Part shown: positions 49,523-63,710 of the stretch, piece after piece
Layout of the letters: every line of letters begins with the position of its first letter
How positions within the stretch are numbered: position 1 is the stretch's first letter
Virus record (IMG/VR): IMGVR_UViG_3300035698_016797
Location: 117,031-181,030 of that record
Reading direction: 5' to 3' (one strand)
From: a virus
Length of the DNA stretch: 64,000 bases
Notes under the pieces: generated by a model
What the model was told of the DNA's origin: nothing
The model's input: only the letters and a program-made list of their open reading frames with translations
Databases searched by the model: none
Program-made: the position numbers and the translations under genes

Positions 49523-49855
49523 TTATTTCACCATGCAACATTGTTTATATTTGAGACTACTGCCACAAGAACATTTGGTGTTGCGACCAATCTTTGGATT
49601 CTTTCTGCGAATTGGAATAAACTTGCCATCGCTATCTTTCTCCTGCTCCTGCCTTCTGACAAGTGCTCCACTATTCATTCTAACCCCATCTACAGATGCG
49701 GCATTTTTCAACAAACATTCGGCACAAATCTTTTTGATCGTTCTTGGGTTTAATGTACAGGTTGGCTTGATCTTTCTGTCAAGCATACAGGAAACACCAC
49801 TTTCGCTCTTAAACCTATACGTCACCTTAATTGCAGTCTTGTCTTTTTTTATCAT
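49523..49855 (-). CDS. SEC-C motif protein (110 aa)
   Basis: C-terminal KIGRNTKCSCGSSLKYKQCC. Confidence 0.8.
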   Translation of the reverse strand: MIKKDKTAIKVTYRFKSESGVSCMLDRKIKPTCTLNPRTIKKICAECLLKNAASVDGVRMNSGALVRRQEQEKDSDGKFIPIRRKNPKIGRNTKCSCGSSLKYKQCCMVK

Positions 49856-50915: not shown

Positions 50916-51092
50916 TTAATCCCTTTCTGGCAACTTCGCGGTTGTTTGTTTGTATGGTCCAGCGGAAGCTTTGCAAGCTGGACATTTAACAGAATCAGAA
51001 GCTGCCTGTGCAGGTGTAACGCTAAACACTCTACCGCAAGATTTGCACTTTGCATTTGTCGTGTCGTATACCTTACCAGTGGTTTTTTGCAT
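50916..51092 (-). CDS. Zinc-ribbon protein (58 aa, below the ORF-track cutoff)
   Basis: Read manually: MQKTTGKVYDTTNAKCKSCGRVFSVTPAQAASDSVKCPACKASAGPYKQTTAKLPERD; SD AAGGA. Confidence 0.65.
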   Translation of the reverse strand: MQKTTGKVYDTTNAKCKSCGRVFSVTPAQAASDSVKCPACKASAGPYKQTTAKLPERD

Positions 51093-51103
51093 TGTAATTT
51101 TCC

Positions 51104-51346
51104 TTATAGTTCAAATTCGTCATTCAAGAAGCGTAATACCTTTTGCATCTCTTCTATTTTGACTCTTAAAATAATTGATTGATCCCTACTGGGCGTGGGC
51201 ATGGCTATATCAACCATTCCTTTGTCTTCTGGATTTTCTGTAATATCTTCTGATTTAGCCAGTGTGATATTGACATTTTCTCCAGTTGAACCTCCTGTGG
51301 CGGAGTCAATATGAATCACATGAGCTTTGGTTACTAAGCGTGCCAT
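51104..51346 (-). CDS. Hypothetical protein (80 aa)
   Basis: SD GAGGAG; tiles in the operon. Confidence 0.55.
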   Translation of the reverse strand: MARLVTKAHVIHIDSATGGSTGENVNITLAKSEDITENPEDKGMVDIAMPTPSRDQSIILRVKIEEMQKVLRFLNDEFEL

Positions 51347-51802
51347 TTATTTACTCTCCTCTGCGCTTGCGGTTTCTTGTGACAATTTTTCCATTGATTC
51401 AATTAAAACCTCGTATTCTTTTTTGATGGTTTCTAGGGCTTTTCCGAAATCTGGCCTGTCGTCATCTCCAACACCACGCTTTGCGTATGCTTGAAGCATT
51501 TTCAAATTACAGTCTGCATGATCCAAATGATGAAGGCCACTTTCGCTATCAAAATCTTCTCCCATGAACCAATATAGCATATGTCTAAGCATGGCTGCAA
51601 ACGGCCTTGTCCAACGCATTCCTTTTTCCCAGTTGCGAGCACTATATTTTACGGCTCCATATGTGAAAACCATTGCAGTTCCAATTAGAGCGTCCCACGG
51701 CATCAAATCTAACCTTGGCTTGCCATTGTCAAATTTGGCGGCAGTTTTACCTCCAATTTTATATGAGTCTCCGTCAACTTTTATTGCTTTTTCTTTTACC
51801 AT
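51347..51802 (-). CDS. dATP/dGTP diphosphohydrolase domain protein, DUF5664-like (start ATG 51802)
   Basis: KFDNGKPRLDLMP...FTYGAVKYSARNWEKG...RH...GEDFDSESGLHHLDHA. Confidence 0.85.
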   Translation of the reverse strand: MVKEKAIKVDGDSYKIGGKTAAKFDNGKPRLDLMPWDALIGTAMVFTYGAVKYSARNWEKGMRWTRPFAAMLRHMLYWFMGEDFDSESGLHHLDHADCNLKMLQAYAKRGVGDDDRPDFGKALETIKKEYEVLIESMEKLSQETASAEESK

Positions 51803-51823
51803 CGTCACTTCCTTTCTAATCAT

Positions 51824-51851
51824 ATAATAGCACCTATTTATATAAATGCAA
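51824..51851 (-). promoter_or_regulatory. Leftward sigma70-type promoter
   Basis: Minus strand TTGCAT-N16-TATTAT with TG one base upstream of the -10 box (extended -10). Confidence 0.55.
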
Positions 51852-51869
51852 CTTTTTTCTGAACAAAAT

Positions 51870-51898
51870 TTGACTTTTCTCAACATATGCAGTATACT
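51870..51898 (+). promoter_or_regulatory. Rightward sigma70-type promoter for tRNA block 1
   Basis: TTGACT (51870-51875)-N17-TATACT (51893-51898). Confidence 0.8.
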
Positions 51899-51919
51899 AT
51901 GCGTAAAGGAGATCGTCAG

Positions 51920-52000
51920 ATGAAAAACTTATATATCAACTTATCCTCACTCAGTTTGTACTGCCTGTATTTTTCGGGCAGTCGTAAGGAGGACTTGTAG
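51920..52000 (+). CDS. Leader peptide 1 (26 aa, MKNLYINLSSLSLYCLYFSGSRKEDL), putative attenuator
   Basis: SD AAAGGAG; lies between a promoter and a terminator; 12 consecutive Leu/Ser/Tyr/Cys/Phe codons. Confidence 0.8.
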   Translation: MKNLYINLSSLSLYCLYFSGSRKEDL

Positions 52001-52030
52001 GCATATAATAATGTCGATCAGAAGAAAGTC

Positions 52031-52061
52031 AAACCCCTCCTTAACTGGATGGGGTTTTTTT
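52031..52061 (+). terminator. Intrinsic terminator/attenuator 1
   Basis: AAACCCCTCC-TTAACT-GGATGGGG followed by 7 T; its 5' arm can instead pair with TAAGGAGG (51985-51992). Confidence 0.8.
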
Positions 52062-52068
52062 ATGTATT

Positions 52069-52163
52069 GGAAAGGTGGCTGAGTCTGGATTAAGGCGGTG
52101 CTCTTGAAAAGCATTGAGCGGCGGTAACGTCCTCCGTGGGTTCAAATCCCACCCTTTCCGCCA
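52069..52163 (+). tRNA. trnS: tRNA-Ser(TGA)
   Basis: Cloverleaf, loop CTTGAAA, long variable arm, G73, encoded CCA. Confidence 0.92.
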
Positions 52164-52168
52164 ACAAT

Positions 52169-52301
52169 GGATTGGTAAGTAATTGGCAGCTGTCCTGTGG
52201 GTAGTACTGAAAGCTGAAGGCTAATGGGTGATTGAAGGCCGCACCCCAGCAGAAGAACAATACAAGCCTTAGACGTTCGGGTTCGAATCCCGACCAATCC
52301 T
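52169..52301 (+). ncRNA. tRNA-like structured RNA (133 nt) with no canonical anticodon arm
   Basis: Acceptor GGATTGG/CCAATCC, D-arm AGT-AATTGGCA-GCT, T-arm TCGGG-TTCGAAT-CCCGA; about 85 nt between the D and T arms; no encoded CCA. Confidence 0.65.
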
Positions 52302-52308
52302 ACAATGA

Positions 52309-52393
52309 GGGTGTGTTGGACAGGTGGTGAGTCCAGTAGACTGTAAATCTACCGCAATAAGCTTTGGAGGTTCGATTCCTTCCATGCCCACCA
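52309..52393 (+). tRNA. trnY: tRNA-Tyr(GTA)
   Basis: Loop CTGTAAA, long variable arm, CCA. Confidence 0.92.
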
Positions 52394-52405
52394 AAAAAAA
52401 TGTTT

Positions 52406-52425
52406 AGCTCATTGAAAATTGAAAA
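52406..52425 (+). promoter_or_regulatory. boxA-like antitermination element, copy 1
   Basis: AGCTCATTGAAAATTGAAAA; 17/20 identical to 56530-56549; resembles rrn boxA TGCTCTTTAACAATT. Confidence 0.55.
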
Positions 52426-52449
52426 GTGTCTGATATAGTTAGAACAGAT

Positions 52450-52536
52450 GGCCGTGTGGCGGAATTGGCAGACGCGCTAGACTCAAAATCTGGTGTTCGC
52501 AAGGGCGTGTGGGTTCGAGTCCCACCATGGCTACCA
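52450..52536 (+). tRNA. trnL: tRNA-Leu(CAA)
   Basis: Loop CTCAAAA, long variable arm, CCA. Confidence 0.92.
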
Positions 52537-52583
52537 ATCAACGTAATAATTCTGTGATAAATAGTAAAAAGGAGGATTTTATA

Positions 52584-52820
52584 ATGTTAAAGGCCACACA
52601 TTATTCTGGCGACGGAAAAGTGATAAGTGTATATAAAAATGTATTCACATATCTTACAGGGGTTGCGAGTGAAATCACTCTTCTTATAGACAATGATAAG
52701 ACAAGAAGAATGAGAAAAAAATATGAGTCTGGTAAAGGTATGATTGTACCAGAAGTTGAGTATTCAAAATATACTTCTATAACGATTTTTGGTAATGTGG
52801 TGGTTGAAAAAGATAATTAG
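52584..52820 (+). CDS. Hypothetical protein (78 aa; start ATG 52584)
   Basis: SD AAGGAGG; the longer track ORF extends into tRNA-Leu. Confidence 0.6.
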   Translation: MLKATHYSGDGKVISVYKNVFTYLTGVASEITLLIDNDKTRRMRKKYESGKGMIVPEVEYSKYTSITIFGNVVVEKDN

Positions 52821-52827
52821 AAGAGGA

Positions 52828-52903
52828 TGAGCAATAGCCAACGTGGTCAAGGCGCTGGTCTGAAAAACCAGAGACCTCAGTTCGATTCTGAGTTGCTCAA
52901 CCA
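52828..52903 (+). tRNA. trnF: tRNA-Phe(GAA)
   Basis: Loop CTGAAAA, 76 nt, CCA. Confidence 0.88.
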
Positions 52904-52962
52904 TTTGACAATAGAAGAAATTGTACGATATTATTACTAGTGCGTATAAAGAACTAAATGAT

Positions 52963-53050
52963 GGTCGAGTGGCGGAATTGGCATACGCACTTGGTTGAGG
53001 GCCAAGGACACAGTAGTGTATTGAGAGTTCGAGTCTCTCCTCGACTACCA
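52963..53050 (+). tRNA. trnL: tRNA-Leu(GAG)
   Basis: Loop TTGAGGG, long variable arm, CCA. Confidence 0.9.
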
Positions 53051-53070
53051 AATTTGAGAATGTAAGTAAT

Positions 53071-53155
53071 GCCCCGGTGGCGGAATTGGCAGACGCGCCA
53101 GATTTAGGATCTGGTGTCGAAAGGCGTGCAGGTTCGAGACCTGTCTGGGGCACCA
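53071..53155 (+). tRNA. trnL: tRNA-Leu(TAG)
   Basis: Loop TTTAGGA, long variable arm, CCA. Confidence 0.92.
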
Positions 53156-53175
53156 ACAATAGAAAGGGACAGATT

Positions 53176-53457
53176 ATGGCTAGAGTAAAAATCAACATGC
53201 CTGGTAACGACCCTGGTGCAAGAAGCATCATCGTTAATGACACTGATCTCACTGGATGTGTAGTGAGTATGGATCTTTCGATTGATCCAACTCAACATCC
53301 AGAAGTTGGACTGAAACTATTTGCAACAGACGTAAAGTTTGAAGGAGATGCAAATATCGTTATCAATGGAATAGAAATACCACAAGAATTGTGTGAAAAA
53401 ATCGCAGATGCTTTGCGCTATGCTTCTGCAAGTGAGCAGCAGAAAGATTCAACATAA
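53176..53457 (+). CDS. Hypothetical protein (93 aa; start ATG 53176)
   Basis: SD GAAAGGG; MARVKINMPG... Confidence 0.55.
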   Translation: MARVKINMPGNDPGARSIIVNDTDLTGCVVSMDLSIDPTQHPEVGLKLFATDVKFEGDANIVINGIEIPQELCEKIADALRYASASEQQKDST

Positions 53458-53466
53458 GGAAAGTGC

Positions 53467-53557
53467 GGAGGGTTGCCAGAGCGGCCTATTGGTCCTGCTT
53501 GGAAAGCAGTGAGTCCCTCTGTGGGACACGAGAGTTCGAATCTCTCACCCTCCGCCA
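53467..53557 (+). tRNA. trnS: tRNA-Ser(GGA)
   Basis: Loop TTGGAAA, long variable arm, G73, CCA. Confidence 0.9.
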
Positions 53558-53563
53558 CTACAC

Positions 53564-53884
53564 ATGTCAACACCAACATTTGACGCCCATGGACTGAAAC
53601 ATATGGAAGTAGCTCCGAAGCTTGAAGATTTTTTTCTTAAGCACGGAGCACCAATCAGAGTTATCACTGGAAAATCTCACATGATGAGGTTGATTTTAAT
53701 AGAACTGATGGCAAATTATGACCTAGAAGGATATCATCCAAACTTCAATAATACTGGAGAGGTTGTTGTAATTGAAAGGAATCGTAATGGTAATAAAAGT
53801 ACAAAAGCTAACGGACGTCCACTTGGCACAAAGAGCTTGCGCAATGACAACTTCAGGACGAAGGTCAGGAATAGACCTAGATAA
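53564..53884 (+). CDS. Stand-alone Smr-domain-like protein
   Basis: FDAHGLKHMEVAPKLEDFF...IRVITGKS...NTGEVVV matches the Smr pattern LDLHG...EA...L..F...IIHGKG...G...V; the last ~33 codons overlap the next gene. Confidence 0.6.
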   Translation: MSTPTFDAHGLKHMEVAPKLEDFFLKHGAPIRVITGKSHMMRLILIELMANYDLEGYHPNFNNTGEVVVIERNRNGNKSTKANGRPLGTKSLRNDNFRTKVRNRPR

Positions 53885-54302
53885 ACTATACCAGTGTGAA
53901 CACTCTCCTGTTAGAACTCAAATATTTTGGATAGAGATGTTAAACATTCCAACGTTTGTTTCCGTCCACTTTGTAAGACACAAGATAGGCGTTGAACACT
54001 TCGCAACAAGTAATAGGCCAGATAGGGGAACTGGAGAAGCCGACAGAATGACGCCAATTAACCACGGTATGCTCATTAATGCACAAGCACTAATAAACAT
54101 GGCAAAGAAGAGGTTGTGTTATCATGCGTCAAAAGAAACAAGGGAAACTATGATTGCAATCCTTAAGCAAATCAAAGTCGTTGATTCAGGTCTTTCTAAA
54201 CGAATGGTTCCAGAGTGTGTATATAGAGGAAAGATTTGTCACGAATTGAAACAGTGTGATTTTATGAAGGGAGCAATAGATCACTGTACGGATAGACGTT
54301 GA
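53787..54302 (+). CDS. thyX: Short ThyX/Thy1-like flavin-dependent thymidylate synthase
   Basis: SD GAAAGGA before ATG 53787; EHSP, HFVRHK...SNRPDR, INAQALINMAKKRLC...VPEC motifs. Confidence 0.7.
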   Translation: MVIKVQKLTDVHLAQRACAMTTSGRRSGIDLDKLYQCEHSPVRTQIFWIEMLNIPTFVSVHFVRHKIGVEHFATSNRPDRGTGEADRMTPINHGMLINAQALINMAKKRLCYHASKETRETMIAILKQIKVVDSGLSKRMVPECVYRGKICHELKQCDFMKGAIDHCTDRR

Positions 54303-54310
54303 CGACTAAT

Positions 54311-54397
54311 GGCCGGATGGCGGAATTGGCAGACGCAACGGACTTAAAATCCGTTATCCAAAAGGGTGTGGGGGTTCGATTCCCCCTTCGGCCACCA
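54311..54397 (+). tRNA. trnL: tRNA-Leu(TAA)
   Basis: Loop CTTAAAA, long variable arm, CCA. Confidence 0.92.
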
Positions 54398-54432
54398 ATA
54401 ATAAATATAGAATACAGACCGTAGGAGAAAAC

Positions 54433-55545
54433 ATGAATTTATCAGAACCAAGCAATATATGTATTAAACCATGGTATGATCAAACCATAGATATGTCTGG
54501 GTGCTGGAGTTGTTGTGGAAACGTCAAAGACAGTGGAGCTATATTTTACGATGAGGATTGGAAAGGTCCATATGTTGGAGATGTTGATCACTGGAATAGT
54601 CCAGAAATGCAGAAATTTAGGAAGGATATGCTAGAAGGAGGAGCCAGCATTGCCTGCGGTATGGCAAAGTGTCCACAAAGATATCGTTCTGCATCAATAG
54701 GAGATAGAATTTTAGAGTTGAAACAAGGTTATAACATCAAAGATGAAAAGTCAAAATCTCAAATAGCAGAAGCCATAGAGAACAATAGACTTATTCTCGA
54801 TTACTCTGCTAAAAAAATTACATACATAGTTACAATGGCTTGTAATTCAAAATGTGCATATTGTTTTCAGATAAGCAAAAGAAAAGATGGTAGTCTAAAT
54901 CCTCCAGAAGGGTATGAAGATCATATTATACCAATTTTGACGAGTGCTAAAGCGGTAAGACTTGCTGGAGGAGAGGTGTTCGTACTTTCAGATAAAAAGT
55001 TGGATAAGTTTTTTGGACACAAAGATTGGGAAAATGTAGAACATGTGTGTGTTGTTACAAATGGAACACTATTGACGCCTGAAAGATATGAAAAATATGC
55101 AGCTAATGGCCCACTTAGCAACATTGAAATTAGTCTAAACACAATGAGCGCAGAAGAGATGTTGAATGAAACAGAAGATATGCTGTTCAAATGCGAAGAT
55201 AACATGAGGGGAATATATGAAAAATATCCAGACCACTGTGTTACAACGTTGAACGTTGCCATGTCTATAAATATCATAGACAGAATTGACGAAGTATTAG
55301 AGTTTGTAAAAAAGTATGGAATAAAAGAGATATTGATTCATCATATAAATGGAACAGTAATGGAATTGAGCGGTGTTGGACATCTTAATCCATACTGTAA
55401 AGAAGGCTATTCAGAAGAAGTTCACGAAAGACTTTTAAAGGTGGTTGATGTTGCGAAACAATTTACAAAAGAGAATGGAATCGGCCTAAGATATAGTACC
55501 ATTCCAATGTCCCTGGGAGAAATGAAGAAAGAGATGGCACAGTAG
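54433..55545 (+). CDS. Radical SAM protein with N-terminal SPASM-like domain (370 aa), paralog of 37196-38311
   Basis: CNSKCAYC, AGGEV, TNG, ISLNT; N-terminal CIKPW...CC...WKGPYVGD shared with the first copy. Confidence 0.8.
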   Translation: MNLSEPSNICIKPWYDQTIDMSGCWSCCGNVKDSGAIFYDEDWKGPYVGDVDHWNSPEMQKFRKDMLEGGASIACGMAKCPQRYRSASIGDRILELKQGYNIKDEKSKSQIAEAIENNRLILDYSAKKITYIVTMACNSKCAYCFQISKRKDGSLNPPEGYEDHIIPILTSAKAVRLAGGEVFVLSDKKLDKFFGHKDWENVEHVCVVTNGTLLTPERYEKYAANGPLSNIEISLNTMSAEEMLNETEDMLFKCEDNMRGIYEKYPDHCVTTLNVAMSINIIDRIDEVLEFVKKYGIKEILIHHINGTVMELSGVGHLNPYCKEGYSEEVHERLLKVVDVAKQFTKENGIGLRYSTIPMSLGEMKKEMAQ

Positions 55546-55609
55546 TCAAGTGGTAAGACGCTGGTCTGCAAAACCAGTTACGTGGGTTCGATTCCCACCT
55601 GTGTCTCCA
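55536..55609 (+). tRNA. trnC: tRNA-Cys(GCA)
   Basis: Loop CTGCAAA, U73, CCA; its first 10 nt overlap the radical SAM stop. Confidence 0.92.
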
Positions 55610-55623
55610 CAGAAAGGCTTACA

Positions 55624-56058
55624 ATGAAAATTAAGAACTTTTCAGGGCACTACGGATTCCTAAGCAATTTCTATGTTGAAAAAAATGGAAAGACGGCAGA
55701 GCATTATTTTCAAGCTTCCAAAACTCATGATAGAAAGTGGCAAGATCTCGTTAAGCTTCAGCATTCTCCAGAGGCTGCAAAAAAGTTTGGTAGATCGTTG
55801 CCTCTAAGAAAAGATTGGCAAAGTGTAAAAGTTGAGATAATGAGAATCGTTTTGGAACGTAAGTTTTCAGATCCAGAACTAAAACAAAAGCTTTTGGAAA
55901 CTGGAAATAGAGAATTAGTAGAAGGAAATACATGGCATGATAATTTCTGGGGAGATTGCAAATGTCACAAGTGCAGACATATTAAGGGTCGAAACGTATT
56001 AGGTATCTTGCTCATGAAAGTAAGGGATATGTTGAGATCTTTCGAAGAAGCAGAGTAG
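55624..56058 (+). CDS. NADAR (YbiA-like) family protein (start ATG 55624)
   Basis: FLSNFY...AEHYFQASK...AKKFGR...MRIVLERKF...LLETGNRELVEGNTWHDNFWG...GRNVLGILLMKVR. Confidence 0.9.
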   Translation: MKIKNFSGHYGFLSNFYVEKNGKTAEHYFQASKTHDRKWQDLVKLQHSPEAAKKFGRSLPLRKDWQSVKVEIMRIVLERKFSDPELKQKLLETGNRELVEGNTWHDNFWGDCKCHKCRHIKGRNVLGILLMKVRDMLRSFEEAE

Positions 56059-56150
56059 GAGAGGTGCCAGAGTGGTTTATCGGGACAGTTTGCTAAACTG
56101 TTGGATCATGAGATGTGGTTCCCAGGGTTCGAATCCCTGTCTCTCCGCCA
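56058..56150 (+). tRNA. trnS: tRNA-Ser(GCT)
   Basis: Loop TTGCTAA, long variable arm, G73, CCA. Confidence 0.9.
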
Positions 56151-56177
56151 ACAAACGTAAAAAAAGTTTCAAAAAGC

Positions 56178-56207
56178 TTGACATAGTTCTTAATACAGGT
56201 ATAGTAT
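56178..56207 (+). promoter_or_regulatory. Sigma70-type promoter for tRNA-fMet and block 2
   Basis: TTGACA (56178-56183)-N16-TATAGT, or N18-TAGTAT; A-tracts upstream. Confidence 0.75.
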
Positions 56208-56221
56208 AGGTAGATTTAGAT

Positions 56222-56300
56222 TGCGGAATGGAGAAGTCCGGCTTAACTCGCTTCGCTCATAACGAAGAGACCGTGGGTTCAAATCCCACTTCCGCTACCA
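56222..56300 (+). tRNA. trnM: tRNA-Met(CAT), initiator-like
   Basis: Loop CTCATAA; U1.U72 mismatch and A11-U24 pair as in fMet tRNAs; lacks the three G-C anticodon-stem pairs. Confidence 0.8.
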
Positions 56301-56316
56301 TTAAGGAAAACAGCAA

Positions 56317-56391
56317 ATGATTAGTTCAATTAGAAAATGGCGCAATAACGGTACAGGAAAAACGGGGGACTACTGCGCCTTGACCCCCTAG
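56317..56391 (+). CDS. Leader peptide 2 (24 aa, MISSIRKWRNNGTGKTGDYCALTP), putative attenuator
   Basis: SD AAGGA; lies ahead of a strong terminator; 13 consecutive Ile/Arg/Lys/Trp/Asn/Gly/Thr codons. Confidence 0.8.
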   Translation: MISSIRKWRNNGTGKTGDYCALTP

Positions 56392-56415
56392 TTGATCATT
56401 CATTTGATTATATAC

Positions 56416-56448
56416 AAGACGAGGCGCTTAGGTGCCTCGTCTTTTTTT
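56416..56448 (+). terminator. Intrinsic terminator/attenuator 2
   Basis: AAGACGAGGCGC-TTAG-GTGCCTCGTCTT plus T-tract; its 5' arm can instead pair with GCGCCTTG (56375-56382). Confidence 0.85.
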
Positions 56449-56450
56449 AT

Positions 56451-56524
56451 GCGACTGTAGCATAGTGGTAATGCGCTGGACTTCCACTCCAGTCAGGAGG
56501 GTTCGATTCCCTCTAGTCGCTCCA
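56451..56524 (+). tRNA. trnG: tRNA-Gly(TCC)
   Basis: Loop CTTCCAC, U73, CCA. Confidence 0.92.
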
Positions 56525-56529
56525 GAAAA

Positions 56530-56549
56530 AGCTCCTTGACAATTGAATA
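56530..56549 (+). promoter_or_regulatory. boxA-like antitermination element, copy 2
   Basis: AGCTCCTTGACAATTGAATA; GCTCCTTGACAATT matches E. coli rrn boxA GCTCTTTAACAATT at 12/14. Confidence 0.6.
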
Positions 56550-56563
56550 AGATGGTGTAGAGT

Positions 56564-56641
56564 AGGTGAGTAGCTCAATTAGGCTAGAGCAGCGGTCTCC
56601 AAAACCGCAGGTTGCAGGTTCGATTCCTGTCTCACCTGCCA
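56564..56641 (+). tRNA. trnW: tRNA-Trp(CCA)
   Basis: Loop CTCCAAA, G73, CCA. Confidence 0.92.
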
Positions 56642-56656
56642 AACAAGGGTAACAAA

Positions 56657-56908
56657 ATGAATAAAGCAGCAATATTAGCAGCATACGACGATGATCAAGC
56701 AGAAATTTTAGCAGCATATGTCAACGTAGCATTAAGAGCAGATGAAGTGATAGAGTTCATAAAAAGAAAATATGGCGTTACTAGCGAAGATGGTTTTACA
56801 TGTATGTATATACTGAGACTGTCACAGGCACTAGATAGGCTGAAGGCAACAACAGGAGGACTTAACGATGGACAAGCCGATGAAGATGTATATTCTAGTG
56901 AAGAATGA
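56657..56908 (+). CDS. Hypothetical protein (83 aa; start ATG 56657)
   Basis: SD AAGGG; MNKAAILAAY... Confidence 0.5.
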   Translation: MNKAAILAAYDDDQAEILAAYVNVALRADEVIEFIKRKYGVTSEDGFTCMYILRLSQALDRLKATTGGLNDGQADEDVYSSEE

Positions 56909-57197
56909 TGTTGACTTAGGACATGCAATGTTGGCAGTTGCACATGGTGTGGCAGCTTGTATGAGACAATACAAGGATGATGAAGATTTGAATGAATGGC
57001 TTCTCGACTCCTTTAGGAAGGTTGTTTGCAAGGTTAACCAAAAAGAGTTTGATGCCGCAAAAACCCTTCTTGAAAAAAGAGTTATCATGACAGAGTGTGC
57101 GTTAGACAATCAGGAAACTGCCATTGTCTTTTGTCCGCGCAAAGAGTGGCCAAAACCGTTTAGTTGGTATAAGCTATATAGAACACAGAAAGATTAA
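56868..57197 (+). CDS. Peptidyl-tRNA hydrolase, Pth2 family
   Basis: KMYILVKNDVDLGHAMLAVAH...W...RKVVCKV...ETAIVFCP. Confidence 0.8.
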   Translation: MDKPMKMYILVKNDVDLGHAMLAVAHGVAACMRQYKDDEDLNEWLLDSFRKVVCKVNQKEFDAAKTLLEKRVIMTECALDNQETAIVFCPRKEWPKPFSWYKLYRTQKD

Positions 57198-57200
57198 ACA

Positions 57201-57488
57201 ATGAAAAAACTAAAATTGCCAGATATTATTGAATATTTAAACGACAAAATTGACGCATTGTGTGAGAGGAAAAATGCTAGAAAACCAGCAAAGGCTGGAA
57301 AGATTTTTGGAGATTCTGTTGTTAAAGAATCTGAAAGACAAGAATTAGAACAGCAAATATCTACAATCTATTCTGTAATAGATATTTTAGATCCAAACGG
57401 TAAATACCTTGAAAAGTACACAGATATTCATCTTGGATGTCAAAATTGGCCAAATTGTGATTCTGTCGGGTGTGGAAATGGAAAATGA
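57201..57488 (+). CDS. Hypothetical protein (95 aa)
   Basis: ORF track; C-terminal GCQNWPNCD. Confidence 0.5.
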   Translation: MKKLKLPDIIEYLNDKIDALCERKNARKPAKAGKIFGDSVVKESERQELEQQISTIYSVIDILDPNGKYLEKYTDIHLGCQNWPNCDSVGCGNGK

Positions 57489-57494
57489 AAATGT

Positions 57495-57568
57495 GCGGGT
57501 GTAGCATAGTGGTAATGCACCAGCTTGCCAAGTTGGCTAGGAGAGTTCGATTCTCTCTATCCGCTCCA
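57495..57568 (+). tRNA. trnG: tRNA-Gly(GCC)
   Basis: Loop TTGCCAA, U73, CCA. Confidence 0.92.
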
Positions 57569-57582
57569 AAAGGAGAAACAAA

Positions 57583-57900
57583 ATGGTACAAACTATACCG
57601 TGTGAATGTGGTGAGACATTGATAGGACTTGATGGAATGTGTGTCGGGTGTTCAAAAGACAGACGCCCTCCGGTTTGTCCAAGCTGTCACTTTAGACATT
57701 TTGAAACGGAAAGATGTAACTTTGAAATGTTAAATGCAGAAGATACACGAACGATGATGCTGTTGGAACTTGCAGAGCATAAGCTAAATGAGGCACATGA
57801 AATAACCTCAGATGGTGAAGTTCACAAGTCGATTGATGAAGCTATGATCATAATGACGATGATCAAAGGTACTTTGTCCGACAGAATAAACGAAAGGTAG
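57583..57900 (+). CDS. Hypothetical Cys-rich protein (105 aa)
   Basis: SD AAGGAG; CECG, CVGC and CPSC motifs. Confidence 0.6.
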   Translation: MVQTIPCECGETLIGLDGMCVGCSKDRRPPVCPSCHFRHFETERCNFEMLNAEDTRTMMLLELAEHKLNEAHEITSDGEVHKSIDEAMIIMTMIKGTLSDRINER

Positions 57901-57904
57901 TGGA

Positions 57905-58135
57905 ATGACAATTGAAGATGCAATAGATCACTGTTATGAGGTTGCAGAAGAGGCTGAGAAGTTTCAATGCTCACCATGCACTAATGATCATTTGCAATTG
58001 GCAAAATGGTTGATAGAGTTAAAGAAGAGACGTGAAGAATGTATGTGCCAGCTTAGCTCAGCGGTAGAGCCGCTGTTTTGTAAACAGCAGGTCGTCGGTT
58101 CGATTCCGACAGCTGGCTCCAAACTAAGAAAGTAA
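57905..58135 (+). CDS. Hypothetical protein whose frame runs through all of tRNA-Thr
   Basis: SD AAGG; MTIEDAIDHC...LAKWLIELK; no stop before 58133. Confidence 0.45.
   Translation: MTIEDAIDHCYEVAEEAEKFQCSPCTNDHLQLAKWLIELKKRREECMCQLSSAVEPLFCKQQVVGSIPTAGSKLRK
58047..58121 (+). tRNA. trnT: tRNA-Thr(TGT)
   Basis: Loop TTTGTAA, CCA. Confidence 0.92.
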
Positions 58136-58139
58136 AAAC

Positions 58140-58559
58140 ATGGATAATGATACAACCACAAACGAAGAGTTTGAGATTTTCAAGAAAGAATGTCTGTATT
58201 GGATAAATGAGTTCTGCCTTCATGATTGGGACGTAGAATTTTGGCACGAAGATATGTCTGAGGCGAAAGCCAGAACAGACTGGACTTGTGAAGGTAAGCT
58301 TGCCAGAATTACTTTTTCAAAAGACTGGAGTCATGTACACAAGACTGATGTTGCAATAAAAGCTTCCGCATTTCACGAGGCTACTGAACTATTACTTGCA
58401 GAGCTGAGCGCAATTTCAAACTGTGTTGTTGTTGATCACAAAAGAACTGACAGGGCAGTACATAGCGTTATACACAGACTTCAGCACATGTTGATTGATA
58501 GAGAGCGTGATGAAATCCAAATTGATATTGTTCAAAGTTTAAAAACAGAAGAGGTTTAA
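58140..58559 (+). CDS. Hypothetical protein with degenerate zincin-like motif (139 aa)
   Basis: LHDWDV...ARITFSKDW...AFHEATELLL. Confidence 0.5.
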   Translation: MDNDTTTNEEFEIFKKECLYWINEFCLHDWDVEFWHEDMSEAKARTDWTCEGKLARITFSKDWSHVHKTDVAIKASAFHEATELLLAELSAISNCVVVDHKRTDRAVHSVIHRLQHMLIDRERDEIQIDIVQSLKTEEV

Positions 58560-58560
58560 T

Positions 58561-59286
58561 ATGCCTAGTGCAATGGTCCCATTTAGCAAGCTTCCAAAAC
58601 CAGAGTCTATAACGGTGGCAAAGGACAGGGGTACAGCATATGGGTACGACGTAATCCTTACAGAAGAATGTATGGAATTTTGTCATAGATACGCTACTAA
58701 GATGCACGAGGTATCAGGTTGTGTAAATATCAATCATGCCATGAGTGGAAAAAAGGGCGAATTTGTAACGTGTGCAGTCTTTATGCATTTAGCAGAAAAG
58801 CTCAAAAGTATGAAGATGAAAGTTATTCATCATGGATTCAGAAGCGAATATTCGTACGACGAAGAACATTTCAAGGATGATATGATGATGGTAATGGGGA
58901 AAAGAGAACATGTACAGTTTGAAATAAAAACATCTGCATGTAATGATCTGGAAAATAGAAGGCCGGGCGGCTTAAGCTGTTCTTTTGATTCTATTCTGAT
59001 AAAGATGGTATACATTTTTTGTCTAGCACCAAAAGAAAATCCTAACCATGTAAGAATTATAGGATGTGCAACACCAAATCATTTAAGAAGGCATTGCATT
59101 ATAAGACACAGGGGAGATATAATGAGCAATAAGGGTGGAGTCATAAAGGAAAGACGTCTGACGGATTGGTCTATCAGATGTAGAAATATGATACCTTTAA
59201 CAGAGGGAACAGTAGAAGATTTGAAATTTCGAAGATATAAGAAAATGGACATTAAATACAACGATATCGGTGGTAAAGTTAGATAG
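58561..59286 (+). CDS. Possible PD-(D/E)xK nuclease-fold protein (241 aa)
   Basis: GKKGE...DD...FEIKT pattern; SD GAGG. Confidence 0.4.
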   Translation: MPSAMVPFSKLPKPESITVAKDRGTAYGYDVILTEECMEFCHRYATKMHEVSGCVNINHAMSGKKGEFVTCAVFMHLAEKLKSMKMKVIHHGFRSEYSYDEEHFKDDMMMVMGKREHVQFEIKTSACNDLENRRPGGLSCSFDSILIKMVYIFCLAPKENPNHVRIIGCATPNHLRRHCIIRHRGDIMSNKGGVIKERRLTDWSIRCRNMIPLTEGTVEDLKFRRYKKMDIKYNDIGGKVR

Positions 59287-59292
59287 ATATGA

Positions 59293-59367
59293 TCGCCAGT
59301 AGCTCAATGGTAGAGTATCCGGCTGTTAACCGGAAGGTTGAAGGTTCGAACCCTTCTTGGCGAGCCA
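59293..59367 (+). tRNA. trnN: tRNA-Asn(GTT)
   Basis: Loop CTGTTAA, T1-A72, G73, CCA. Confidence 0.92.
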
Positions 59368-59386
59368 AATTAAGAAAGGTACAACA

Positions 59387-59686
59387 ATGTCATCAGGTCA
59401 ATATGGATTCTATGGGAAAACAGGCGTATTTAACAATGATGGATTCTTTAACGAAGGACAAAGGGTTCCTATTAAACCGTGTTCGTGCGGTGGCAATGTA
59501 CAAATATATTGTGAGTACGAAGAAATGATAGGGTGGAAAGGAACAGATTTTCAAATTGTTTGCCGCAACTGTAAGAGGCAGACTAAAATTGGAATAGATT
59601 TTGCACTGTTAATAGACAATTGGAACGACGACGATGTTTTGCCAAAAGAAAAACATCACGCATGGTCCTTACCTAATAGCCCTTGA
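59387..59686 (+). CDS. Lar-like zinc-binding protein (start ATG 59387)
   Basis: KPCSCGG...IVCRNC...LIDNWN resembles the Lar restriction-alleviation family. Confidence 0.55.
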   Translation: MSSGQYGFYGKTGVFNNDGFFNEGQRVPIKPCSCGGNVQIYCEYEEMIGWKGTDFQIVCRNCKRQTKIGIDFALLIDNWNDDDVLPKEKHHAWSLPNSP

Positions 59687-59710
59687 CAAAGTGAACACAC
59701 GGTATATATT
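59683..59710 (+). promoter_or_regulatory. Possible internal sigma70-type promoter
   Basis: TTGACA (59683-59688)-N16-TATATT (59705-59710). Confidence 0.5.
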
Positions 59711-59736
59711 GTAAGAAGTTAAAAGAAAGGAATACA

Positions 59737-60024
59737 ATGATAGCAGATATTATAAACGCATCCTTTGAATTACTTGCAGGATTGTTCATAGCTAACAATT
59801 GCAGGTGTATTGTGAGGGATAAGGAAATCAAAGGTGTAAGTGCAATTTCAATATTGTTCTTTACGTTCTGGGGCTACTGGAACCTCTACTACTATCCAAG
59901 CTTAGGACAGATATGGAGTTTCATAGGTGGTATCGTTGTGGTAAGCGCAAATACGGCCTGGATAGGATTAATTGCATACTATAGGATTAAAACAAGGAGT
60001 TTGGAAAATGGACAAACCAGCTAG
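59737..60024 (+). CDS. Small 3-TM membrane protein, PQ-loop/SemiSWEET-like (95 aa)
   Basis: Three hydrophobic segments; RDKEIKGVS...WGYWNLYYY. Confidence 0.5.
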   Translation: MIADIINASFELLAGLFIANNCRCIVRDKEIKGVSAISILFFTFWGYWNLYYYPSLGQIWSFIGGIVVVSANTAWIGLIAYYRIKTRSLENGQTS

Positions 60025-60544
60025 AGACGATGTTAACTGGATAGAAACCACAAACGGAAGATTGGCATATCCACTCAATCCAAAACCTGAAGACATGTTC
60101 ATTGACGATATTGCACACTCTTTGTCGTTGCAATGCAGGTTTACGGGTCACTGTTCTAAGTTCTACAGCGTAGCAGAGCACTGTGTGCTTGGTTCGAGAC
60201 TCTGCGACAGTCCAAGGTGGATGTTACTACACGACGCATCGGAGGCATATCTTACAGACATAGCAAGGCCAGTAAAGAGACTGTTACCAAAAGTTAAGGA
60301 AATTGAAAACGATTTACTGTGGTGTGTGGCCGCAAGGTTTAACCTTATATGGCCAATGCCGGAATGTGTCAAAATAACAGATGATAGAATGCTCATTACT
60401 GAAAGAAATCAAATTATGCCAAAAAGTCAACACGTTTGGGGAATAGATAAGATTGGTTTGGAACCGTACGATATTAAGATTGAATATTGGACTCCAGAGG
60501 TTGCAGAGGCAGAATTCTTCAAAAGATTTTACGAACTGAGTTAG
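60008..60544 (+). CDS. HD-family 5'-deoxynucleotidase, YfbR/YfdR-like (start ATG 60008)
   Basis: IDDIAHSLSLQCRFTGH...YSVAEHC...LLHDASEAYLTDI..PVK...KITDDRML. Confidence 0.8.
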   Translation: MDKPARDDVNWIETTNGRLAYPLNPKPEDMFIDDIAHSLSLQCRFTGHCSKFYSVAEHCVLGSRLCDSPRWMLLHDASEAYLTDIARPVKRLLPKVKEIENDLLWCVAARFNLIWPMPECVKITDDRMLITERNQIMPKSQHVWGIDKIGLEPYDIKIEYWTPEVAEAEFFKRFYELS

Positions 60545-60554
60545 GAGTAAAACA

Positions 60555-60776
60555 ATGCTTACTGTTGAATGTAAAATTAACGGTTATCCGATTACAACTA
60601 CGCTTATACGCAATGTTACAAAGGAGCAGAATTGGGACAAAGCAATACACACGTATGAAGTTAAACACTCAAGCAATAACGGTAAGCTTATAGAGTTCTT
60701 GATAGAACACATTAGAAACCAGGGGTCAGAAAAGCTTGTAGAAATAGTAATGAAGGAAATTTACGGGCGCTTGTAG
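60555..60776 (+). CDS. Hypothetical protein (73 aa)
   Basis: SD AGGAG; its stop TAG is U8-A9-G10 of tRNA-Lys. Confidence 0.6.
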   Translation: MLTVECKINGYPITTTLIRNVTKEQNWDKAIHTYEVKHSSNNGKLIEFLIEHIRNQGSEKLVEIVMKEIYGRL

Positions 60777-60845
60777 CTCAGCCAGGTTTAGAGCATCGGA
60801 CTTTTAATCCGAGGGTCCAGGGTTCGAATCCCTGCGGGCGCACCA
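60767..60845 (+). tRNA. trnK: tRNA-Lys(TTT)
   Basis: Loop CTTTTAA, CCA. Confidence 0.92.
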
Positions 60846-60861
60846 AAATCAGGAGATAACA

Positions 60862-61065
60862 ATGGATAGTAAAGATGGAACACTTTGTCCCAGGTGGGAA
60901 GATCCTGTCCAAAGAAATATCATTCCAGGACAGGATATGCAAAGAGCGGGACATGTTGACATCATTTTCGTTGGCGAAGAAGAGGAGACTGCTCATTCGT
61001 CATATCTCGAAGAAGATTTTTCAAACGACGAATTAATAGGAGCGAGTGGGCGATTAGCTCAATAG
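60862..61065 (+). CDS. Hypothetical acidic protein (67 aa)
   Basis: SD AGGAG; its stop lies inside the tRNA-Arg(ACG) D-loop. Confidence 0.5.
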   Translation: MDSKDGTLCPRWEDPVQRNIIPGQDMQRAGHVDIIFVGEEEETAHSSYLEEDFSNDELIGASGRLAQ

Positions 61066-61124
61066 AATAGAGCACCTGGCTACGAACCAGGAGGTTGGGG
61101 GTTTGAATCCCTCATCGCTCGCCA
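61048..61124 (+). tRNA. trnR: tRNA-Arg(ACG)
   Basis: Loop CTACGAA, A20, CCA; variant T-loop TTTGAAT. Confidence 0.88.
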
Positions 61125-61131
61125 CATTTTT

Positions 61132-61668
61132 ATGGAATATCTAAGATCGGAAAAAGAATACATCTATTTGAATTACGTATGTGAAAGAGTAGAGTCCTAT
61201 TTTCCAGAAGCACAAACAATGCTTGATGTAGGTAGTAATACCGGCCTTTATCTGAAAAGGTTCGAATGGATTCCAAGTGTGACAGCTATAGATATCTTAA
61301 CAGTACCAAGCTTTGATTTTGTCAACGGAATCAAGGCAAACTTTCTTGAGCATGACTTTGAAGGTCAGTCTTTTGAAGTAGTAACGTGTCTGCAAATGCT
61401 TGAACACGTAAAAAATCCAAGAGACTTTTTTGTTAAGATGGTTGAGTTGACAAAAGGAGTTTTGATAGTATCTTTACCATACAAGTGGAGTGCAGACAGT
61501 ATTGCAGACCACATTCACGATCCAATTGACGACAAGAAGATGATGGATTGGTTTGGAGCTTTCCCCACACACTGTTGTACCATTACGGAGCCGGAAAATA
61601 GAGGTATTAGAGTGATATGCCTATTCAGATTCTACGACGAAAAGCAGAAAGAGAGATATTATGGCTAA
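61132..61668 (+). CDS. Class I SAM-dependent methyltransferase (178 aa)
   Basis: MLDVGSNTG...AID...FEVVTCLQMLEHV. Confidence 0.8.
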   Translation: MEYLRSEKEYIYLNYVCERVESYFPEAQTMLDVGSNTGLYLKRFEWIPSVTAIDILTVPSFDFVNGIKANFLEHDFEGQSFEVVTCLQMLEHVKNPRDFFVKMVELTKGVLIVSLPYKWSADSIADHIHDPIDDKKMMDWFGAFPTHCCTITEPENRGIRVICLFRFYDEKQKERYYG

Positions 61669-61960
61669 TGCAATTGTGATCAGCAGGTTTGGAAAACTTC
61701 TGGGAGTTTTTACTCAAAAACAAAAGGCATGGCAATCTATACAGGAATGTGAAGAGGAAGAAGACTTGGAGAAGATTCTTGTGATGGTTGATTCCAGACC
61801 AACAGCAAGAGAGGAAGTTGTTCCATTAACATATGCAAAGCTATGCAAGCAGTTGTCTGAAATGGGTCGTGCAGACATAAGGTCTGTTACAAAGCTTGAA
61901 CCGGCTCAAATTAGATATGGACTATGGCAAGTTGAAATTAATGTCCCAGTAGCTCAGTAG
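61661..61960 (+). CDS. Hypothetical protein (99 aa)
   Basis: Overlaps the upstream stop; its own stop lies in the tRNA-Arg(TCT) D-loop. Confidence 0.55.
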   Translation: MANAIVISRFGKLLGVFTQKQKAWQSIQECEEEEDLEKILVMVDSRPTAREEVVPLTYAKLCKQLSEMGRADIRSVTKLEPAQIRYGLWQVEINVPVAQ

Positions 61961-61976
61961 ATAGAGCAACTGACTT

Positions 61977-62582
61977 TAACTAAAAAGGAGCGTTCTATGT
62001 GGAAGATTGAGAAGATTGTTAGCAAGGGCGATTACGATTACGCTGTTGTTTTCAAACATCCCACAGCAACCAAACACGGGTATGTATTGGAACATCGGAT
62101 AGTAATAGAGAATAGTCTGGGTAGGCTTCTCAATCCAAATGAAGTTGTTCATCATAAAAACGGTGATCGAAAAGACAATCGCTTAGAAAATCTTAAAGTA
62201 ATGAAACGTAAAGAACATTGTTCTAAACATGGATTGAAACAAGGCAGGTTATGGGTAGTATTAAAATGCCCTGAATGCGCTAAGATTTTCGAGAAACCAA
62301 AGAATAAATCCTTTCTTCAACAGGGCACGAGTTACACAACTTGTTCACCACAATGTAGAGGAAGATTTTCTAGAAAGATGCAACTTCAAGGAATAACCAT
62401 AGAACTGGAGAGGGCTATATCGGGGAATCTCGTAAGTAAGTATAGGAAATACTCCACGACAATCCCGAGCAAACCATTAACAATGGGATGCGTAGAGGCC
62501 ATACGCCCTCAGTCTGGAATGGCTAAGAGATGGTCCAGCCAGCAAGCTTGAAAAAGTGGTTATGGAAACATGATGCTGGAAG
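61977..62582 (+). mobile_element. Group I intron (606 nt) inserted after U34
   Basis: 5' exon ends in U and the intron ends in G. P1 CUU/GAG; P3 GAGGGC (62410-62415)/GCCCTC (62505-62510); P7 GGCCAT/ATGGTC; Q-like AATCCCGAGC; R-like AGAGGCCATAC; S-like AAGAGATGGTCC. Confidence 0.85.
61997..62551 (+). CDS. Intron-encoded HNH homing endonuclease (184 aa)
   Basis: LEHRIVIE..LGRLL...EVVHHKNGDRKDNRLENL, then CPEC...CSPQC; the 3' part reads through the intron core. Confidence 0.9.
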   Translation: MWKIEKIVSKGDYDYAVVFKHPTATKHGYVLEHRIVIENSLGRLLNPNEVVHHKNGDRKDNRLENLKVMKRKEHCSKHGLKQGRLWVVLKCPECAKIFEKPKNKSFLQQGTSYTTCSPQCRGRFSRKMQLQGITIELERAISGNLVSKYRKYSTTIPSKPLTMGCVEAIRPQSGMAKRWSSQQA

Positions 62583-62639
62583 CTAATCAGTAGGTCGTAG
62601 GTGCAAATCCTACCTGGGACACCAACTAGAAAGAACAAT

Positions 62640-63230
62640 ATGACACATTCAGATTTTGGACAAGACGTATATATCAGAGACAGATTCTTCCGTGGATCAA
62701 AGTCTGGGTGCTGTTTGGAGGCTGGTGCTCAAGATGGAGAATCCCACAGCAACACTCTTTTGTTTGAAGAGGAGCATGAGTGGGATAGAATTTTGATAGA
62801 GCCAGATCCAAAACACATGCAAGTTTTGAAGACAAGAAAGAATGGTAGAAAGTATTGTGCACCCCTGTGGGATGTAACCGGCGATACTGTGGTAATGAAC
62901 GACATCAATAAGAACGGATGGACCCACATAGATAAATATGGTCCTAAGAATGTAGAGATTGTCCACCAGTGGAATGCTGTCACAATCGGGATTAACGATG
63001 TGTTGCCACAATATACAGACTTGGTATCGCTGGACACAGAAGGATCAGAGCATGTAATTGTTGGAGCAATAGACTTTAGTAGATTCAAAATTGCAGTGTT
63101 CCTCATTGAAGCAAAGGAGTCAAGAGAATATATTGGTAAAATCCTCAAAAGAGAAGGGTATATATTCTACAATACAATCAAGCATGACGTAATCTATTAT
63201 GATCCAAAACTGATACAGCCGAAAGGATAG
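62640..63230 (+). CDS. FkbM-family methyltransferase (start ATG 62640)
   Basis: GQDVYI...LEAGAQDGESHSNT...ILIEP...VSLDTEGSE. Confidence 0.8.
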   Translation: MTHSDFGQDVYIRDRFFRGSKSGCCLEAGAQDGESHSNTLLFEEEHEWDRILIEPDPKHMQVLKTRKNGRKYCAPLWDVTGDTVVMNDINKNGWTHIDKYGPKNVEIVHQWNAVTIGINDVLPQYTDLVSLDTEGSEHVIVGAIDFSRFKIAVFLIEAKESREYIGKILKREGYIFYNTIKHDVIYYDPKLIQPKG

Positions 63231-63234
63231 TTAA

Positions 63235-63612: not shown

Positions 63613-63632
63613 ATCTCGAATATGTCCCATGT

Positions 63633-63710
63633 TGGGGCATAGCTTAGTCTGGTTAAAGCATCCGTCTTATAAACGGAAGACCATGAGTTCAAATCTCATT
63701 GTCCCTACCA
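63633..63710 (+). tRNA. trnI: tRNA-Ile(TAT)
   Basis: Loop CTTATAA, A73, CCA; U1.U72 mismatch. Confidence 0.8.

Follow-up and report, generated by a model that had tools for sequence, protein, structure and literature searches.

Multivalent leader peptides are known from enterobacteria, where the leaders of ilvGMEDA (Ile/Leu/Val) and thr (Thr/Ile) are examples. Both are among the operons listed in PMC1183508. Here, we describe a short open reading frame (ORF), leader 2, that lies in front of a block of transfer RNA (tRNA) genes, block 2, in a 64,000-nt stretch of a virus contig (IMG/VR record IMGVR_UViG_3300035698_016797, positions 117,031 to 181,030). This stretch is referred to below as the window. 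Judged from its sequence, leader 2 is probably a functional, codon-matched and ribosome-mediated (leader-peptide) transcription attenuator that gates block 2. It resembles ilvGMEDA and thr in its short leader that would be translated, in having regulatory codons for multiple amino acids, in its 1:2, 2:3 and 3:4 pairings, and in an intrinsic terminator right before the regulated genes. The differences lie in what is regulated and how it is sampled. The genes behind leader 2 encode tRNAs rather than biosynthetic enzymes, and seven amino acids and eight tRNAs are represented mostly by one or two codons each, whereas the enterobacterial leaders use tandem repeats for one to three amino acids. Moreover, the sensed quantity and the product would be the same class of molecule, giving direct feedback, and the element is on a phage.

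The trpL and hisL leaders have the same architecture, which requires a kinetic race of ribosome versus polymerase, and their energies are comparable to those of leader 2 (2:3 about -13 to -19 kcal/mol, 3:4 about -21 kcal/mol). However, they sense one amino acid each, and leader 2 has neither sequence homology to them nor an Rfam leader match. Translation-apparatus genes are controlled by tRNA charging in pheST, through the pheM leader, and in T-box riboswitches. Leader 2 would share with these the tie between translation-apparatus supply and the state of charged tRNA, but the target of pheM is a synthetase and its signal one amino acid, and each T-box binds one uncharged tRNA directly, without a ribosome, by means of a specifier loop, the T-box sequence and a stem I platform. 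We rejected a T-box identity for leader 2: searching window positions 51000-64000 with Rfam at the gathering threshold detected tRNAs only, and no leader family, T-box or other family.

The attenuator of mycobacterial whiB7 consists of an upstream ORF (uORF) of mixed composition. In experiments, it is activated by depletion of tRNAs, tRNA synthetases or amino acids, with stalling leading to antitermination, and its coding sequence sets which starvation is sensed (PMC10274678). The whiB7 uORF is thus an experimental precedent for a tRNA-sensing leader. It differs in being chromosomal, in its enrichment for one amino acid (Ala) and in controlling a transcription factor of a stress and resistance regulon instead of tRNAs (PMC10274678). 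The class of mechanism is known; what is new is the tRNA array as target, the sampling of one codon per tRNA and the direct feedback. A full-text literature search found no published account of tRNA genes controlled by a leader peptide, be it in phages or in bacteria.

Leader 2 is matched to the tRNA genes of block 2

Leader ORF 2 is located between tRNA-Met and tRNA-Gly(TCC). Its parts, their geometry, the match between codons and tRNAs and the co-variation of this match in relatives are directly readable from the sequences. The features of the locus are, in window positions:

56178-56205 (+): putative promoter-like site P2 (TTGACA, 16 nt, TATAGT; 11/12 matches)
56222-56300 (+): tRNA-Met(CAT), called by ARAGORN; Rfam tRNA model 58.5 bits
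56305-56309 (+): Shine-Dalgarno (SD) core AAGGA, aligned spacing ~7 nt to ATG, read from the sequence
56317-56391 (+): leader ORF 2, ATG to TAG, 24 sense codons plus TAG, read from the sequence
56332-56367 (+): predicted regulatory run, codons 6-17 (AGA to GGG), 12/12 decoded by block-2 tRNAs
56339-56344 (+): region 1, GGCGCA, the core of the leader hairpin 56314-56406
56374-56382 (+): region 2, partner of either region 1 or the terminator 5' arm
56416-56427 (+): region 3, the terminator 5' arm, of which 56420-56427 pairs with region 2 to give the antiterminator
56432-56450 (+): region 4, the terminator 3' arm and T run; 12-bp stem, -21.1 kcal/mol
56451-56524 (+): tRNA-Gly(TCC), predicted first gated gene, starting 1 nt past the T run
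56564-64000 (+): rest of block 2, with tRNA genes for Trp, Gly-GCC, Thr, Asn, Lys-TTT, Arg-ACG, split Arg-TCT and Ile-TAT (ARAGORN) and interspersed ORFs

Inside the window, ARAGORN places Gly-TCC, Trp-CCA, Gly-GCC, Thr-TGT, Asn-GTT, Lys-TTT, Arg-ACG, Ile-TAT and the intron-split Arg-TCT in block 2, and two more genes of this block, Lys-CTT and Arg-CCT, follow beyond the end of the window (genome 262-426). Allowing Watson-Crick, G:U or inosine wobble pairing, codons 6-17 of leader 2 are read by Arg-TCT, Lys-TTT, Trp, Arg-ACG (inosine wobble), Asn, Gly-GCC, Thr-TGT and Gly-TCC. The original prediction, made from the window alone, had quoted the ORF and its codons 5-17 exactly as we find them. 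The run of 13 matched codons that it proposed is real, but its strict length is 12 codons (6-17). It was right that ATT and Ile-TAT correspond at the amino-acid level only, as ATT is not decoded by Ile-TAT. Its count of eight matched tRNAs out of nine stands for the genes within the window, but becomes 8/11 for the whole block because block 2 runs past the window end to Lys-CTT and Arg-CCT. ARAGORN confirmed the split Arg-TCT gene, with an intron of 606 nt. An Ile-GAT gene, which it had suggested looking for past the window, does exist, but sits in the minus-strand block 3 and not in block 2.

To judge how often such a match arises by chance, we translated the genome in all six frames, which gave ~362,000 codons. 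Block-2-decoded codons form their longest stretch genome-wide in leader 2, and this is also the sole run of at least 12 codons that samples eight block-2 tRNAs. In tRNA diversity per 15-codon window, leader 2 belongs to the top 0.2% of genome windows.

Two sister cassettes in the same genome

That the same logic appears twice, in leader 2 and in an upstream leader 1 of unrelated sequence, had also been proposed. Both points hold: local alignment scores between the two leaders are no better than those of shuffles, and a third cassette was found in addition. The latter was sought as a prediction, as the attenuator reading demands that the third tRNA block has a cassette of its own. The two sister cassettes are:

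51870-52063 (+): cassette 1, with promoter-like site, SD, 26-codon leader (51920-52000) and terminator, before the Ser/Leu/Tyr/Phe/Cys block
genome ~6480-6720 (-), outside the window: cassette 3, with TTGACA-type promoter-like site, SD, 30-codon leader and terminator

Block 1 comprises tRNAs for Ser, Leu, Tyr, Phe and Cys, and leader 1 is the sole locus in the genome that samples 10/10 block-1 tRNAs within 15 codons. Block 3, on the minus strand outside the window (genome 6476 to 2334), encodes Ala, Pro, Gln, Ile-GAT, Glu, Glu, His, Val, Asp, Val and Gln tRNAs. The hairpin and T run of cassette 3 end just before tRNA-Ala, the first of these, and ten further minus-strand tRNAs follow. Leader 3 holds all eight block-3 amino acids (Gln, His, Asp, Val, Glu, Ala, Ile and Pro) and samples 10/11 block-3 tRNAs, being one of two genome loci that reach this number. 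Together with tRNA-Met, the three blocks cover all 20 amino acids.

In a codon matrix of three leaders by three blocks, the diagonal holds 16/25, 12/23 and 14/29 codons for leaders 1, 2 and 3, while off-diagonal counts range from 3 to 7. As leaders 1, 2 and 3 have no detectable sequence similarity among them, the same logic has been built three times from different sequence. Our best reading of these data is that leader 2 is one of three multivalent cassettes with which this phage would sense decoding capacity.

Alternative pairings and ribosome geometry

The 1:2, 2:3 and 3:4 pairings and the 12-bp terminator originally proposed for leader 2 are all present, and we computed their energies. The 1:2 pairing GGCGCA/TGCGCC comprises 6 bp with a duplex energy of -10.0 kcal/mol, and the larger leader hairpin (56314-56406) reaches -21.4 kcal/mol. 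The 2:3 pairing, GCGCCTTG/CGAGGCGC, comprises 8 bp including one G:U (-13.2 kcal/mol; -19.2 for the local fold), and the 3:4 pairing of 12 bp (-21.1 kcal/mol) is followed by the T run. The stop codon at 56389-56391 indeed lies just after region 2, at a distance of 7 nt. As a whole, leader 2 is more stably folded than shuffles (z = -3.7).

We modelled the position of the ribosome by a ribosome walk, in which the transcript was cut just before region 4 and the footprint was masked from -17 to +11 relative to the A site. Folding was restricted to RNA 3' of the ribosome; base pairs spanning the ribosome gave blurred boundaries. In this model, the 2:3 antiterminator forms with the A site at codons 2-19 of leader 1, 2-16/17 of leader 2 and 2-20 of leader 3, and is lost beyond. 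The matched runs end at codons 19, 17 and 21, respectively, within one codon of the antiterminator limit in each case. Varying the footprint edge from +9 to +15 moves the boundary one codon at most, in either direction. The walk supports the view that the matched run ends where a stalled ribosome would begin to cover region 2. In each of the three leaders, the stop codon is sited such that a ribosome that finishes the ORF would cover region 2.

Leaders and tRNA blocks co-vary in related phages

Relatives of the phage were found by searching a large protein collection for TerL (45-69% identity, contigs of 140-200 kb). The closest one, JGI contig Ga0451564_000210 (L021/L022; TerL 69%), has an array of 30 tRNAs in the same three-block layout. 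Its leader 2 is likewise located between tRNA-Met and tRNA-Gly and encodes a quite different peptide; the alignment of the orthologous leader 2 pair is limited to the terminator 3' arm. The run in this leader consists of Gly, Thr, Ile, Arg, Asn and Trp codons, which are exactly the tRNAs of its block.

Differences in tRNA sorting between the two phages are reflected in their leaders. The two Lys tRNAs are in block 2 of our phage and in block 3 of Ga0451564_000210, and the numbers of Lys codons are two versus none in leader 2 and one versus two in leader 3. In Ga0451564_000210, leader 3 has AAA and AAG within the run, whereas the leader 3 run of our phage is without a Lys codon. A Met tRNA belongs to block 1 of Ga0451564_000210, and an ATG occurs inside leader 1 of that phage. 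A Tyr tRNA is present in our phage only, with three Tyr codons here versus one in the relative. Conversely, Ga0451564_000210 has a Thr-GGT tRNA and two ACC codons in its leader 2 run, while our phage lacks Thr-GGT.

Two more distant relatives from IMG/VR, G001 (TerL 58%) and G002 (53%), were identified with an alignment of TerL, and we used the Rfam tRNA model to find their arrays. Each has three cassettes in which the tRNAs are sorted in other ways and the leaders match; for example, a block of Gly, Ser, Leu, His and Tyr tRNAs lies behind a leader run of those five amino acids. Our phage and these three relatives yielded a set of 12 leader-block pairs. Of the amino acids in the blocks, 82/84 are present in the block's own leader (odds ratio 47, p ~6e-18, statistics that ignore shared ancestry). 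Of the 1,296 possible within-genome assignments of leaders to blocks, none scores as high as the true one, at either the amino-acid or the codon level. All 12 cassettes end in a canonical hairpin and T run. In 9/12, the 3' part of the ORF contains a region 2 that pairs with the terminator 5' arm, with energies of -8.7 to -17.1 kcal/mol, and in most cassettes the start of region 2 and the end of the matched run are no more than ~4 codons apart, in either order. Since the leaders cannot be aligned, it is composition and architecture that are conserved, not a peptide.

The protein genes between the tRNAs are completely different among relatives (window 53564-63612 compared with L021), and the conserved unit therefore consists of leader and tRNAs. 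The tRNA arrays behave as cargo hot-spots. In our phage, the protein genes of the array encode a Thy1-like protein, a radical SAM protein, NADAR, Pth2 and three methyltransferase-like proteins; those of Ga0451564_000210 encode a trypsin-like peptidase, an HNH protein, a CHASE-domain protein and a dUTPase.

Proposed mechanism

In the model that we favour, transcription would start at P2 and proceed through tRNA-Met into the leader, and a ribosome would translate the 24-codon ORF as polymerase nears the terminator. If decoding is fast, the ribosome would reach the end of the ORF and cover region 2, so that the 3:4 hairpin forms and transcription stops 1 nt before tRNA-Gly. If a charged tRNA is scarce, the ribosome would wait at any of codons 6-17 and cover region 1, leaving region 2 free. 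Region 2 would then pair with region 3, the terminator would not form, and polymerase would enter the genes of the very tRNAs that decode those codons. Such control would be driven by demand and subject to negative feedback, as accumulating phage tRNAs would allow the leader to be read quickly and close the gate. From the arrangement of the parts, we infer that the leader is translated, that ribosomes stall on it, that readthrough is regulated in this way and what the physiological signal is.

The operon context is consistent with this model. Scanning for promoters revealed no promoter-like site between P2 and tRNA-Gly(TCC), and the first tRNAs behind terminators 1 and 3 occupy the same position as tRNA-Gly behind terminator 2. 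A promoterless tRNA gene right behind a terminator of -21 kcal/mol would be senseless unless the terminator is leaky or regulated. tRNA-Met lies upstream of the attenuator and would be transcribed from P2, and is therefore ungated. On the array coding strands, there is no strong intrinsic terminator besides those of the three attenuators; one extra strong terminator, at genome 434 on the minus strand, separates the end of block 2 from that of block 3.

Leader 2 has a promoter-like site, an SD and a short ORF, its candidate regulatory codons are related to the function of the downstream genes, and its pairings are mutually exclusive. The stall geometry fits in the model, and a promoter is predicted to be lacking, the latter before the first gene only. 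Those sequence-level predictions of the attenuator reading that were testable came out as expected, which supports it.

Several observations weigh against this reading. Equilibrium folding with a constrained ribosome forms the terminator at every ribosome position, so the switch rests on the kinetic model; in the trp attenuator, the terminator is likewise favoured at equilibrium and the switch is kinetic. In a Bacillus-like host, if that is what the phage infects, coupling of transcription and translation may be poor. Leader 2 also has a weaker SD than leader 1, a 5-nt core only as against AAGGAG. Three block-2 tRNAs, Ile-TAT, Lys-CTT and Arg-CCT, are without cognate codons in leader 2 (AAG and AGG are absent), and its two ATT codons are decoded by a block-3 tRNA. 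Tracking at the anticodon level is also imperfect in Ga0451564_000210, where leader 3 uses GAG though its block is without Glu-CTC. The more distant relatives G004 and G005 yielded no clear cassettes in an automated scan alone, which is not evidence of absence, and the disregard of shared ancestry in the co-variation statistics belongs here as well. Finally, sampling is shallow, with one or two codons per tRNA in leader 2, and the Elf-Ehrenberg model predicts low sensitivity for a mild shortage of a single tRNA (PMC1183508). Almost all codons in the control region of leader 2 would be regulatory, though for different tRNAs. The design would thus suit severe or joint depletion: the device may respond to severe loss of one tRNA or to a joint slowdown of the tRNAs of the block, rather than to a mild single shortage.

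Alternative explanations

The most serious alternative is that the attenuator is real but local, gating tRNA-Gly(TCC) and at most the next few genes, with internal promoters driving most of block 2 constitutively. Two features are relevant here:

56530-56563 (+): promoter-like or boxA-like element (TTGACA, 16 nt, TAGAGT)
59683-59710 (+): internal promoter-like site (TTGACA, 16 nt, TATATT)

These promoter-like sites (at 56536 and 59683) match 10-11/12 positions and could free much of block 2 from the gate, which is a further point against our reading. In the tRNA region, the coding strand shows a ~12-fold enrichment of such sites, and an analogous one (52412) follows the first tRNAs of block 1. 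However, the -10 box of the 56530-56563 element touches the first base of tRNA-Trp, and because it abuts the 5' end of this gene, a start from the 56536 site would lie inside tRNA-Trp. This argues against the element being the tRNA-Trp promoter. In addition, leader 2 samples tRNAs up to 6 kb downstream (Lys, Arg-ACG and Arg-TCT), and this sampling co-varies in relatives, which would be pointless if those genes escaped the gate, and our scan found no strong intrinsic terminator to interrupt block 2. We therefore consider a purely local gate unlikely. An intervening promoter-like site is lacking only before the first gene, tRNA-Gly, and the sites further down may limit how much of block 2 is gated.

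The element at 56530 also bears on a second alternative, in which decoding is sensed but the output is protection from Rho or RNases that depends on translation, or control of tRNA precursor processing. Window positions 52406-52425 and 56530-56549 are two copies of one 18-nt degenerate consensus, AGCTC.TTGA.AATTGAA, each following the first tRNA(s) behind an attenuator. This consensus can be read as a promoter -35 box and as an rrn boxA-like site alike; boxA sites of the rrn type are bound by NusB/NusE and lie downstream of a promoter. A boxA-like motif behind each attenuator would fit such an output, as would the exposure to Rho of tRNA transcripts, which are largely untranslated, and the indifference of the terminator to ribosome position at equilibrium. 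These alternatives do not account for the canonical hairpin and T run of 12/12 cassettes, nor for the complementarity of region 2 to the hairpin 5' arm, near the end of the matched run in most cassettes. This geometry is specific to the terminator/antiterminator model, and we regard a different output as improbable.

A terminator behind a tRNA gene is ordinary and short ORFs are ubiquitous (13 kb contain 243 with 20 aa or more), so the hairpin could in principle be a plain terminator of the P2-tRNA-Met unit that happens to follow a chance ORF. This is very unlikely given that tRNA-Gly starts 1 nt past the T run without its own promoter, that the codon run is a genome-wide extreme, and that two further cassettes match their blocks and the match co-varies in three relatives. 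That the ORF encodes a small functional peptide with a composition incidental to the tRNAs is hardly credible even though many micropeptides are encoded by phages, since orthologous leaders are unalignable, amino-acid composition alone tracks the tRNA set, and the three leaders of the genome are unrelated in sequence.

The same design outside the lineage

Cassettes of the same design were found beyond this group of relatives. In an unrelated 265-kb IMG/VR contig (IMGVR_UViG_3300050821_009835; L016), which was reached by chance via a NADAR homologue, an ORF with a run of Leu and Tyr codons (locus 7181-7255; cassette 7181-7319) is followed by a terminator, tRNA-Tyr and four tRNA-Leu genes. This leader has a separate Leu codon for each of the four Leu tRNAs. 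Elsewhere on the same contig (11088-11266), tRNAs for Pro (three), Met (two) and Phe (one) lie behind an ORF that has several Met codons and uses three different codons for Pro.

The cultured Caulobacter phage phiCbK (JX100813) carries unannotated cassettes of codon-matched leader and terminator at record positions 49540-49790 and 51341-51560. The first ORF (49540-49677) contains mainly Ser, Leu, Ala, Pro and Lys codons, and also Thr, and is followed by a terminator and Pro, Lys, Leu, Ala and Ser tRNAs. The second (51341-51439) has a Gln/Phe/Val/Ile run, followed by a terminator and Phe, Val, Ile and Gln tRNAs. A small ORF before tRNA-Glu and tRNA-Asp shows a weak match only. Some stretches of phiCbK, e.g. 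L045 2951-3140, look like tRNAs and have no ARAGORN call. The phiCbK genome paper does not mention leaders or attenuation (PMC3556154).

Why, and when, phages use their own tRNA genes is a long-running question, and the roles proposed so far are compensation of codon usage, making up for a host tRNA pool that has been degraded, and evasion of defences that cleave tRNAs. If leader 2 acts as proposed, the phage would gauge decoding speed codon by codon and make the matching tRNAs on demand. This would explain the amino-acid sorting of the arrays, the strong terminators right before promoterless tRNA genes and the high sequence variability of small array ORFs. Leader-peptide attenuation would gain a new class of target genes, and the leader would be a readable record of the tRNAs that are treated as one regulatory unit. 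The idea is directly testable because the cultured phiCbK carries the same design.

More tentatively, the three cassettes may amount to phage surveillance of host decoding capacity, with each leader as a test strip of one codon per tRNA, and such surveillance might be widespread in large phages, including cultured ones. Removal of one tRNA by the host or by an anticodon nuclease would then stall the ribosome at the corresponding codon and switch on the block with the replacement tRNA. The amino-acid-exclusive sorting of tRNA blocks would be a consequence of such control.

Genome setting and neighbouring features

The ends of the 181,030-bp contig overlap by 127 bp, and the window is its final part. 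ARAGORN called 34 tRNA-like genes in the entire contig, two of which are doubtful. The remaining 32 tRNA genes and one intron-split gene are in a single region spanning the contig junction. The two scattered, isolated calls, one with the four-base anticodon 'aaac' and one Ile-AAT (genome 31355-31431 and 55138-55211), are outside the window and are probably false positives or tRNA-like elements. The split tRNA-Arg(TCT) gene (61943-62624, +) has its 606-nt intron after anticodon-loop position 34/35; the intron contains an ORF (61997-62551) and has no group I intron match in Rfam at the gathering threshold.

TerL of the phage has 26-28% identity to TerL of cultured Bacillus and Clostridium phages in GenBank, and identity this low means that there is no close relative in culture. 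The GenBank phage search for close relatives returned only tRNA-Trp matches besides these TerL matches. Single-protein searches of IMG/VR with NADAR, radical SAM and TerL yielded loci for NADAR alone, from unrelated phages, and the radical SAM and MazZ-like proteins had no relatives on long contigs in a set of 5.8 billion proteins.

Window 51347-51886 (-) encodes the N-terminal domain of a dATP/dGTP diphosphohydrolase (PF18909, E 1e-28). It is of the MazZ type, which is known from phages with 2-aminoadenine (Z) genomes. A protein with sigma-70 region 2 and a helix-turn-helix (HTH) is encoded at window 48816-49373 (-) and has a conserved counterpart at L020 4697-5191 in the 69% relative. If the phage has its own sigma factor, this could alter the choice among the promoter-like sites of the array. 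A single ORF of 5,506 residues at window 3297-19817 (-) presumably encodes a giant structural or tail-fibre-like protein.

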